Assembly (NCBI RefSeq): GCF_003018255.1
Contig: NZ_CP027440.1
DNA: 64,000 nt
Direction: 5' to 3' (one strand)
Source of the DNA: Escherichia coli
GTDB taxonomy: Bacteria; Pseudomonadota; Gammaproteobacteria; Enterobacterales; Enterobacteriaceae
The position numbers are program-made. Below are positions 42,101 through 45,100 of this stretch, piece by piece. The first letter of the stretch is position 1, and each line of letters begins with the position of its first letter.

Positions 42101-45100
42101 CATGAAACTAGGCGAGATATCTCAGCTTGGGTTAGGGGGAGTAGTGTCTCAAGTTCTGCGATGCGTCGTTTGTAAAACCAACGGAATAGACTTGATTTGC
42201 GTCGAGCCAGCTCGCTTTTTTGTTTTGATTCTTCGGCAAGAGCCTCTTGAAGATCTGCTTTTATCTCTGCTCTTTGTTCTCGTGCTTTAGCAATCAAATC
42301 TCGTAAAGGTAAAAGGGAGGTACTTGTAAGGACTTCTACCGAAGCGCTGGATATTTCATTCATGCCAGCTACAGGCATATATATTTTAGCGTTCGATGGT
42401 GTGTTTTCTGGAGATGACCCAGACTCCAAATGAGGTTCTGTAGGGGCTGGATTTAATGGATTGGTAACTGAGTATCCATCATCATAGGGCAAGGTAGGTG
42501 TAGTATAAGATAAGCCTGTGCCCGGTAATCCGACAGTTGCTCTAACCCCTTTTTTACCAACATTGACAGTTGCGCCAGGCACGCCAATGCTTGCACTTAT
42601 TCCACGCTTGCCAATGTTGAGTCGAACGCCAGGAAATAGAGTAAAGGTTTGTCTGAAACGAAGAGACATAAAGTTATACCTATGTAGTTTTGTACACCAA
42701 AGTTCGAAATGTTTTTATATGAATATTGAGCTGATTCATAAGATTATTCCTAGCTCATCTTCATTCCGCCATGATACAACGGTTTGCTTGCAGGTGAAGA
42801 AAAACGTAAAAGCCCAATAATGATTGGTGGGCTGGTGGAGTTGAAACCGCAGGCTCGTCGTCTGCAAGAAAGTGCTGCGGCTGGCTGGTCAGCTTCTGAT
42901 AGTGAGAATATTGAATGATTTCAAGCTGTTATCGATTTTGCGTATTTTTTGTATGGGAGGATTTGTGCCTCCTCCCATCGGTCCTCCATGACTTTACGCC
43001 ACTGTCTCTAGGGCTGCTATGTGCCAGAAGCTGACATGGCTAGTCCCTAGGCACATTGACCAGCAGGTCATCCATCCCTTAACATATCGTTATGAAATTT
43101 AAAGGATCGATGTTATGGCTTATGAATTAACTTACAGACCCCTCGAATACGGATCGAATGAAAATTATCTTCGCAGAAGTTTGAAAGACCCTTCATTACT
43201 AATTCCTGAAAAAGAGATAGGATGTTTTCTAGTTCTCCAATCCTCATATGCACTACATGAAACTATTGGACTTTCAGCCCAAAACCTAGATATTTCATGG
43301 CAGTCTAACCAAAATTACTTATCGTCAAATTGTGATGGTGAGGCCCCTCTAGCTTGTTATCCTATTTATTTGATTACAGTTGGAGATGATGAAAATGAAA
43401 GGCTTGTTTACATCGGCAAGACATCATCGAAGAGCTCACGATTTTCTTCAGGCCATAGCGCAATTACTAAGTTACACCATCCTAAATATGACAATTTGTC
43501 AAAGCGTATATATTTGTGCTGCGTTGTTTTTTTAAAAAACAGCCAAACCATCCCAATAGAATGGATTAAGCCTTTTGATTTCGCTGAGAAACTATTGAGT
43601 GAATTTGAAGCGAACTTGATTTATTGGAATAAACCAGAGTTGAATACGCAACATATGAAGAAAGAACCTACATTTGAATATGGGCAAGTTCATGCACAAA
43701 ATGTAACTGGCGCAACGTATTTTTGGCATGATAAATTCATTTAGAACTATATAAACAAAACTTGAGTTAATTCTCTATTTTCCGCACTTTTTTTCCAATG
43801 AGTTCTACATATTGGTCAAGATTGTGCTCAAGGGCGCAATAAACTTAGTATTGCGTCTGTAATTCGCTCAGACTGTGTGAAAACGGTTTAAGCTTCAGAG
43901 GTGAATGCAAAAGAGGCTGACGCCTGCGCTTTTAAGTAAAATCTGCATCATCTTTCTATGTAAATTTTCTAAGAAGTCATCTAAACGCGTGACCTTCTGT
44001 CAGCAATCAGAGTTTTCATACAGCCTGCGTTCGAAGCTGCCCTTGGGCCCGCCTATGGCAGTTGAGTGCCAGAAGCGGACATTTTAACTAATATTCAGCA
44101 TGTTTATCATTATGTCACACGCAAAATGATAAATTAATATATTCAGAGGATTTTTTAACTCAAAAATGGCGTTGTAATTCAATGAACCATGCCTATAATC
44201 TAACATAAAAATAATATATCATTGAAAGGATAAGGCTTTGAATATTTACATTGATGAGTCGATACACGAGGAGTTTGGGTTTATGATCTTGGCTTATGTA
44301 GTTTGTAATCAGGATCCTCAGTCTGATATATACAAGATTCTTTCAGAACATTCAGTTGATGAACATCACTCATGCGCAAGAATGGATAAATCTGAATCTT
44401 TAAGAAATTTGAGGAGTAATCTTATTTCCTACTTAAACGCAAATTGTCGATGGGGGGCATTTATTATGCCAAGTGAGTATCGCCATCGTTCTTATGAGGA
44501 TGTGTCTTTTTTATTAAGCTTATTGATTAAGAATTTTCCAGACAGGAAAGGGAATATTTTTTTCGATGAAGGTATCATAAACCCTACAGAAGCTCTCAGT
44601 CTATGCTCTGATGAAGTCAAAGTTATAACATGCTCATCCCATGAAGTTTGTGGGATACAACTTGCTGATCTAGTAGCATCTTTTAGTGGTGTTAGGTTGA
44701 GAGAAACAATAACAGGAAAAGCAAAAATTTTAACTTACGGTTACGACTTCGGCTATGAGCCCCCAATAGAATCCCCGCTTGGATTTGAGCTTTTTGCTAC
44801 ACTTCGACAATCTATGCTCAGGGGAAATGAACCTCTTGGGAATGAGATGCCTGAATTTGCCACATTTAAAACTATTAATAAAGGATTGGTTTTGTCGAAA
44901 AACTTAACAACTGAATTTAGTCAGTTGGCATTAAAAACCTTTGGGGAAGTGTACTTAGGTTGCATCCATTAAATGTAATATTACTATTTATCAATTACTA
45001 GCAAAATTAAGCTAGGTGTTCCTAAGAATATAGGTGACGATGATACAACTGACTTCCGCTTTTCGCTCATAACAGACATTCACTACAGTTATGGTAGAAG

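Follow-up and report, generated by a model that had tools for sequence, protein, structure and literature searches.

The DNA analysed here, referred to as the window, is a stretch of 64,000 nucleotides from Escherichia coli (NCBI RefSeq assembly GCF_003018255.1, contig NZ_CP027440.1). The region of interest forms the right-hand end of a lambdoid prophage integrated at icd, the same place as that of phage 21, and its genes follow in the order J, lom, stf, tfa, DUF2971 and DUF4236 (both on the minus strand), a gene for a 209-aa protein, a DUF3800 gene coding for 244 aa, the icd 3' duplicate, iraM and bluR. The arrangement was unchanged in 30 complete sister genomes. The 209-aa protein gave a weak match to the GIY-YIG Pfam model and a match to PHROG 16890. 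A 17-bp motif precedes both the 209-aa and the DUF3800 gene, and comparison with related loci indicates that this 17-mer is probably the crossover core of a lox/dif-like site, which bounds prophage gene cassettes and is served by a tyrosine recombinase of about 200 aa.

Copies of the motif in the window

Both copies had been picked out in a sequence-only reading of the window and indeed lie on the plus strand where it had placed them, identical at 16 of 17 positions. Copy 1 (GTGCCAGAAGCTGACAT, 43021–43037) ends 77 nt before the ATG of the 209-aa open reading frame (ORF) at 43115, and copy 2 (GTGCCAGAAGCGGACAT, 44066–44082) ends 155 nt before the TTG of the 244-aa ORF at 44238. The imperfect palindrome CTAGGG...CCCTAG described around copy 1 is also present (43008–43013 and 43045–43050). 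The likeness of the copies extended leftward to 30 nt at 80% identity (43008–43037 versus 44053–44082), and no further copy of the 17-mer with up to three mismatches was detected in the 64-kb window. Beyond the pair already reported, an inverted third copy of the site and another one split by a miniature inverted-repeat transposable element (MITE) were recognized (Table 1).

A two-copy repeat with 16 of 17 identical positions is not significant alone in 64 kb, as at least two matches to the 17-mer pattern occurred in 5 of 100 shuffles and a repeat scan of 7 kb revealed numerous two-copy families of comparable size. The weight of the repeat comes from its context and from related sequences. The core was enriched in loci with the recombinase described below (68 copies observed versus 8 expected in 30 loci; 222 versus 80 in shuffles in a second scan). 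The 9-nt arm of the site alone was too noisy an anchor for such scans (505 matches versus 312 in shuffles) and a 13-nt core was used instead.

Anatomy of the sites

Related loci are designated below by L numbers. The minimal form of the site, found in Luteimonas (L074), reads ATGTCCGCTTC-CGGCCA-GAAGCGGACGT and has an 11-6-11 layout, that is two inverted arms around a short asymmetric spacer, as in the lox, FRT and dif-type sites. Given this layout, the 17-mer corresponds to the spacer (GTGCCA) together with the right arm. The 66-bp form from E. coli consists of two such sites with the spacers TCGCTC and GTGCAA/GTGCCA. The left and right arms were complementary at six or more of 11 positions in 28% of sites, compared with 2.7% in a shifted control; the left arm was weakly conserved and conservation fell to 0 bits just outside the arm. 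The functional unit would accordingly have 28 bp, with the 6-bp spacer GTGCCA, an 11-bp recombinase-binding arm (GAAGCGGACAT) on one side and a degenerate arm on the opposite one.

Two spacer types may be distinguished, GTGCCA (A) and TCGCTC (B, in the opposite orientation), which appear to alternate, each gene cassette being placed between an A-site and a B-site. The spacing of sites was examined in 83 loci. None of the 38 (+)(-) pairs were closer than 400 bp, 32 of these gaps being gene-sized, and 11 of 40 (-)(+) pairs lay within 120 bp of each other, forming compact palindromic sites between cassettes. The modules are flanked by inversely oriented sites in the manner of pdif modules, and the window follows the same pattern with A2(+) and B(-).

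In the window, A-sites 1 and 2 would bound a cassette with the 209-aa GIY-YIG-like gene, and A-site 2 together with the inverted terminal B-site a DUF3800 cassette. The latter, with its flanking arrangement, was found only in the 30 sister genomes. The split B-type site precedes A-site 2; with the MITE removed, the two form a 67-bp composite, B(28)+11+A(28), ending at 44082, comparable with the 66-bp composite sites of L012, L013 and L016. The left arm of the split site is weak (4/11) and the assignment is moderately supported.

Homology breakpoints and hybrid junctions

The search for copies in related prophages, suggested along with the motif, showed that homology breakpoints fall on it. Partial matches of other prophages (among them L002, L003, L006, L007 and L010) end at 43034–43037 and are followed by unrelated genes; for L002, L003, L007 and L010, the homology ends at the 3' end of A-site 1, and the identity with L095 begins at its spacer.

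Cassette 1 was found in three contexts, namely in the prophage of the window, in L095 and in the enteropathogenic E. coli strain E2348/69 (L005). The window and L095 share 99.2% identity over 1,064 bp, exactly 43020–44083, and in L095 the cassette comes immediately after a frameshifted copy of the recombinase gene. E2348/69 is 98.8% identical to the DNA left of copy 2 and the match ends at 44083. At copy 1, the left flanks of the window and L095 differ up to the spacer. At copy 2, the sequence is common to all three contexts up to the end of CCTATGGCAGTTGA-GTGCCA, after which the arms differ: GAAGCGGACAT in the window, GAAGCGGACGT in L095 and AGAGCGGACAT in E2348/69. The mobile unit defined in the A register has 1,045 bp (43027–44071). 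The initial suggestion that the motif might be the end of a small repeated insertion module was essentially right, as it forms the junction which joins this gene cassette to its neighbours.

A Nissle-type island (L013) and the corresponding island of strain 3-72 (L098) provided a second comparison. The two islands are 99.8–99.9% identical and differ by two exact site-to-site indels, one between A-sites (A x A), which spans 2,186 bp and takes in the recombinase gene, the other between B-sites (B x B), of about 1 kb. The hybrid sites formed in both cases consist of the left arm of one parent, the shared spacer and the right arm of the other; arms exchanged across a shared spacer were seen here as well as in the contexts of cassette 1. 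These natural experiments fit a conservative site-specific exchange of like with like. The A x A loss of the recombinase gene in L098 represents a route by which orphan arrays, such as that of the window, may arise.

A small tyrosine recombinase accompanying the sites

In L002, an internal motif copy is preceded by the 3'-terminal part of a tyrosine recombinase gene. The complete gene (603 bp) was present in about 870–915 E. coli genomes and the homology among them again ended at the motif; in about 630 E. coli genomes, the 3' end of the gene is held in common only up to the A-site, after which the sequences diverge. Strains with the recombinase include Nissle 1917, in which the protein is intact (WP_001305361.1), and the enterotoxigenic E. 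coli H10407. Cassette arrays placed beside the recombinase gene, with a variable first cassette as in integrons, were found in L012–L014, L017–L019 and L095.

The protein has 200 aa and contains only the catalytic Phage_integrase domain of Pfam (residues 35–184). It scored below every curated subfamily cut-off, including those of the XerC and XerD models, matched NCBIfam invertase models weakly and reached 15.9 bits with the NCBIfam integron integrase model (cut-off 265), so it is not an IntI-type enzyme. The names given in the source records are generic. No match was found in PADLOC. The family is very common in Gamma- and Betaproteobacteria, with at least 546 matches confirmed in a species-representative genome collection, of which 80 loci with 59–98% identity were kept. 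The E. coli-type core G(G/T)GCCAGAAGCGGAC was present within 140 nt after the recombinase stop codon in 33 of 83 recombinase loci. A strong hairpin preceded it in 25 of these 33, the stem sequence varying between taxa with pairing kept (at least five unrelated stems), and an inverted copy of the core lies about 60 nt upstream of the recombinase start codon. The core and the recombinase co-occur in part of the Gamma- and Betaproteobacteria.

Decayed recombinase genes, either frameshifted or reduced to a 3' fragment, are frequent in the arrays (L095 7001–7604, L002 6231–6335, L054 ~88–318), and the gene of L098 was lost through the A x A deletion. This suggests that the enzyme may often be lost and that the arrays are then frozen.

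Proposed mechanism of cassette exchange

The site anatomy, the junction positions, the sharing of cassettes, the site-to-site deletions and the co-occurrence with the recombinase were obtained by sequence comparison; from them we infer the acting enzyme, the positions of the strand cuts and circular intermediates. Sites would recombine like with like, A x A and B x B. Direct A-sites would release the intervening DNA as a circle with one site and such a circle could enter any other A-site. For the window, A x A exchange between sites 1 and 2 is predicted to leave AGGGCTGCTAT-GTGCCA-GAAGCGGACAT at the deletion and to create GCCTATGGCAGTTGA-GTGCCA-GAAGCTGACAT where the circle closes. The enzyme responsible would be the recombinase of about 200 aa, the gene of which has a B-site on one side and an A-site on the other. 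Neither the window nor the chromosomes of the 30 sister genomes contain a recombinase gene. The window array is therefore an orphan, presumably movable only with the recombinase supplied in trans.

An IS1182-family element inserted in the sites

The 155-bp MITE which interrupts the spacer of the split site is a derivative of the IS1182 family of insertion sequences (IS). Full-length relatives of 1.6–1.76 kb with the same 14-bp ends (GGCTGTGTGAAAAC) were found in Halomonas, Pseudoxanthomonas, Burkholderiales and Rouxiella, and they encode an IS1182 transposase of about 478 aa (450 bits versus a cut-off of 270). In nearly every IS1182-family copy examined, both flanks consisted of a site arm and spacer. 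The element and its MITE thus insert specifically into the site spacers in distant taxa and treat the sites as a distinct target, which supports the recombination-site interpretation independently.

The prophage slot and its backbone

The array occupies the variable "b-region" slot between the tail-fibre genes and attR of a phage-21/lambda-like prophage. The coordinates of the features are given in Table 1.

Table 1. Sites, cassettes, backbone stretches and IS1182-family elements in the window and at related loci
Feature	Position	Strand	Description
L-stretch	42844–43009	+	Conserved non-coding backbone before the first site; hairpin-like repeat at its start, 42847–42882
Inverted B-like arm and spacer-like hexamer	42886–42902	-	TGGTCAGCTTC/TGATAG; left end of the L-stretch; moderately supported
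A-site 1	43010–43037	+	Left arm AGGGCTGCTAT 43010–43020, spacer GTGCCA 43021–43026, right arm GAAGCTGACAT 43027–43037; holds copy 1
Cassette 1 body	43038–44054	+	209-aa GIY-YIG-like gene 43115–43744 plus 3' region
Split B-type site	43853–43870 and 44026–44043	+	Left half GCGTCTGTAAT/TCGCTC/A; right half TGCGTTC/GAAGCTGCCCT; halves separated by the MITE
155-bp MITE	43871–44025		14-bp terminal inverted repeats GACTGTGTGAAAAC / GGCTGTATGAAAAC; IS1182-family derivative, inserted in the site spacer
A-site 2	44055–44082	+	Left arm ATGGCAGTTGA 44055–44065, spacer GTGCCA 44066–44071, right arm GAAGCGGACAT 44072–44082; holds copy 2
Cassette 2	44083–45051	+	DUF3800 gene 44238–44972 (244 aa), between A-site 2 and the inverted terminal site
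Terminal B-site	45052–45079	-	Plus strand ACTTCCGCTTT/TCGCTC/ATAACAGACAT; minus strand ATGTCTGTTAT/GAGCGA/AAAGCGGAAGT; inverted relative to the A-sites
R-stretch	45080–45259	+	Conserved backbone after the terminal B-site; small ORF 45107–45259
IS1182-family element/MITE copies	L040 5847–7519; L054 3773–5355; L087 1828–3501; L030 8187–9945; L014 6308–6462		

The 190 bp left of the motif belong to the L-stretch family, for which 13,952 places were counted in 5,384 of the 5,426 E. coli genomes; the longest of these matches end at 43034–43037. The L-stretch is located directly 3' of pinE in L002 (e14-like) and L009. In the element at its left end, GTCAGCTTCTG corresponds exactly to the reverse complement of the CAGAAGCTGAC found in copy 1. 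This element is kept as TGGT(C/G)A(G/A)CTT(C/T)(T/C)GATAG in L002, L003, L006–L009 and lambda, and the homology of L010 to the window begins at its arm. The terminal B-site also precedes the conserved R-stretch in L002, L006, L007 and lambda. Downstream of the R-stretch lie a phage-21-type attR region (45260–45452) and the icd 3' duplicate (45453–45605). In phage 21, the small ORF of the R-stretch (MLGGESMKEKKTAAPFVVTFIFIGYAS...) carries the name CPT_21_32 and the annotation of a putative membrane protein; the icd pseudogene, attP and int come after it. In 17 genomes, the backbone is "empty", with the L- and R-stretches joined as ...CTGCTATGT/ATGCTGATTGGGG... (window 43022 to 45107; L008 4144–4213 and L009 4143–4212). 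This form has neither of the sites and no cassette, its R side is shorter by 45 nt, and a short TATG(T/C) repeat is present at the junctions.

In phage lambda (L096, J02459), the L-stretch occupies 24162–24351 and ends in an A-site short of one base (24336–24351). It is followed by the b-region genes, a B-site (~27318–27340), the R-stretch and attP; phage 21 is organized similarly. The GenBank record of lambda contains an unexplained misc_recomb feature at 24389–24390, near the A-site.

The small ORF of the R-stretch sits where the recombinase gene sits relative to a B-site. The sequence after the terminal B-site (TCGCTCATAACAGACATTCACTAC, window 45063–45090) resembles TCGCTCATAAGGGACAACCATACT just upstream of the recombinase gene (L012–L014, ~6455–6480), and CTAGGGCTGC before A-site 1 (43008–43017) is similar to the leading half of the hairpin 3' of the recombinase gene (CAGGGCTGC). 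The prophage slot thus looks like a recombinase unit from which the gene was lost. Examined by eye as a possible decayed recombinase gene, the L-stretch gave no convincing likeness beyond about 25 nt at each end. L006 carries two tandem L-stretches (3083–3125 and 5144–5193), and the site at the end of the first one (TATATGGCTAGTAGCGGAGGT) has diverged strongly. Duplication within the slot can accordingly affect even the backbone unit.

A 36-nt hairpin-like direct repeat (81% identity; CCGCA...CTGCGGCT) is located right after tfa (40378–40413) and at the start of the L-stretch (42847–42882). The two copies bracket the DUF2971 and DUF4236 module (40414–42846), which looks like another swappable slot; the DUF2971 protein matches the PADLOC candidate defence family PDC-S31. 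The prophage shares its integration module with phage 21 and e14, and the e14 of K-12 is without the sites.

Alternative explanations

The variability of the slot could also have arisen without a dedicated enzyme, by short-homology or ordinary recombination at conserved linkers, as in the classical account of lambdoid mosaicism. The long conserved L- and R-stretches around the slot could drive RecA or Red exchange, the genome of the window lacks the recombinase, and the hybrid junctions contain 9–14 bp of identity. We nevertheless consider this explanation unlikely, as it accounts neither for the inverted arms and spacers, the two self-specific spacer classes and the A/B spacing grammar nor for the presence of a single recombinase family alongside the sites in distant taxa, and cassettes have moved between unrelated contexts with only about 17–28 bp in common. 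A shufflon-like switch, in which the recombinase would invert cassettes between inverted A- and B-sites and thereby toggle expression, is very unlikely. Every cassette does lie between inversely oriented sites, the asymmetric site with a conserved core, one conserved arm and one variable arm resembles sfx of R64, and the recombinase has about the size of Fim-type invertases and matches NCBIfam invertase models weakly. The A and B spacers, however, differ at two of six positions, and the polymorphisms observed are deletions between direct sites of like type, which would be unusual for Rci. The predicted inverted form of the Nissle cassette was found in none of 5,426 genomes, 230 of which carry that cassette beside the recombinase gene, and the cassettes hold whole unrelated genes rather than alternative gene ends.

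Still less likely are terminal inverted repeats of a non-autonomous transposon (a cargo MITE) mobilized by a transposase encoded elsewhere. Such an element would agree with a slot bracketed by inverted repeats, with an empty backbone devoid of the whole block and with the TATG(T/C) repeat at both junctions, which is like a target duplication, but a transposase belonging to it was not found, the cassettes are separated by direct copies within the array, and at the hybrid junctions arms are swapped across the spacer instead of a fixed unit being moved. The sole transposon found, of the IS1182 family, has different ends and targets the sites. Least probable, and rejected here, is the shared promoter or operator put forward in the sequence-only reading, to which only the position of both copies upstream of plus-strand genes in the window lends itself. 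The orientation of the first gene after the site varies, being plus in the window, L006 and L010 and minus in L002, L003, L007 and lambda. The site follows the recombinase stop codon in many species, and the hexamers that look like promoter elements (43056–43085 and 44172–44199) are found within the cassettes and 3' of the motif. A promoter and terminator scan gave nothing overlapping the motif, and the fixed position and orientation expected of a sigma-70 promoter or operator were not seen.

The recombination-site interpretation has points against it as well. The left arms of the window are weak (6/11 complementary in each of A1, A2 and the terminal B-site), and about one third of the 13-nt core matches in the loci are expected by chance. 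The junction of the empty backbone is not predicted by either A x A or B x B exchange, and the extent of identity at the hybrid junctions leaves room for short-homology recombination. In 50 of the 83 loci, the 140 nt next to the recombinase stop codon contained no recognizable E. coli-type core, and there site and enzyme may have diverged together. No sequence relative of the recombinase with a solved structure was found in the PDB at E ≤ 1e-3. Current activity of the window's sites would have to do without a recombinase in cis, and the enzyme was assigned by adjacency and co-occurrence only.

Three other candidates were dropped. The feature is not a site of the Pin invertase, as the K-12 e14 element (pinE-mcrA) has neither the motif nor the L-stretch; Pin/Hin-type crossover sites are unrelated in sequence to the motif. 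IS200/IS605-like ends and an integron attC, brought to mind by an ATAAC...GTTAT hairpin and the TATG repeat, were abandoned given the arm-spacer-arm anatomy and the hybrid junctions. A permissive Rfam search of 42600–45500 returned only chance-level matches to eukaryotic snoRNAs and lncRNAs.

Relation to known systems and significance

The system would belong with the cassette systems of tyrosine recombinases, such as integrons and pdif modules. As in integrons, a tyrosine recombinase gene stands beside an array of cassettes with a single gene or a few genes, separated by imperfectly palindromic sites, the cassette nearest to the recombinase is hypervariable and orphan arrays exist (cf. CALINs, clusters of attC sites lacking integron-integrases). 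Integrons also have their own site-targeting IS family, the IS1111-attC elements, parallel to the IS1182-family element described here. The differences are substantial, as the recombinase has 200 aa rather than about 320 and scores far below the integron-integrase model. The sites are 28-bp lox-like duplexes or 66-bp double sites of two spacer classes, with the arms GAAGCGGAC, the spacers GTGCCA or TCGCTC and no GTTRRRY core of attC. Moreover, the recombinase gene is itself bracketed by sites, and the cassette genes face both ways with promoter-like sequences of their own.

The site sequence is unrelated to E. coli dif, and the sites are not of the dif-like, XerCD-dependent type. The pdif modules of Acinetobacter plasmids are nevertheless alike in being separate sets of genes that lie between 28-bp (11-6-11) tyrosine-recombinase sites of inverse orientation and are shuffled between replicons (PMC9771954). 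The pdif sites are similar to chromosomal dif and presumably served by XerC/XerD of the host, whereas here a dedicated small recombinase travels with the arrays, in prophages and chromosomal islands of many Proteobacteria.

The R64 shufflon and the present system share an asymmetric site and a location near tail-fibre and invertase genes. The Rci recombinase of R64 has about 384 aa and the sfx core, GTGCCAA, resembles GTGCCAG here. The sfx sites combine a conserved core and one conserved arm with a variable second arm, and Rci is larger, has an extra C-terminal domain and performs inversions only (PMC11852207). In contrast, deletions between direct sites were found here, no inversion was seen, the predicted inverted form of the Nissle cassette being missing from all 5,426 genomes, the recombinase has no Rci-type C-terminal extension and the segments are whole genes. 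Inverted arms, a short asymmetric spacer, excision between direct repeats and an exchange of arms as would follow from crossing over within the spacer are shared with Cre/loxP, from which the system differs by the lack of an N-terminal core-binding domain in the recombinase, by one arm being usually degenerate and by natural arrays of many cassettes.

No published description of the site/recombinase system was found in the open-access literature, including searches with literal sequence strings and for the IS1182 connection, and it is not treated in a preprint that deals with serine recombinases as markers of defence genes. We give even chances to the broader claim that this is a previously unrecognised integron-like platform of Gamma- and Betaproteobacteria with a minimal 200-aa recombinase, 28-bp sites of two classes and its own site-targeting IS family, the mostly orphaned sites of which bound the b-region/moron slot of lambdoid and e14-like prophages, including lambda, and which would be a main route of exchange between prophages and chromosomal islands for accessory and candidate defence genes.

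If this is true, a concrete mechanism would be at hand for the extreme variability, long known but unexplained, of the non-essential DNA from the tail-fibre genes to attR in lambdoid phages, the seat of morons and of genes for virulence and defence, and the stretch of lambda at ~24.16–27.47 kb would be re-annotated. The sites would serve as a sequence marker of cassette boundaries in many proteobacterial genomes and aid in finding accessory and defence genes. The very small recombinases with short sites would be possible tools for genome engineering, and a mechanistically simpler cassette platform, with orphan arrays and a site-targeting IS, would stand beside the integrons.

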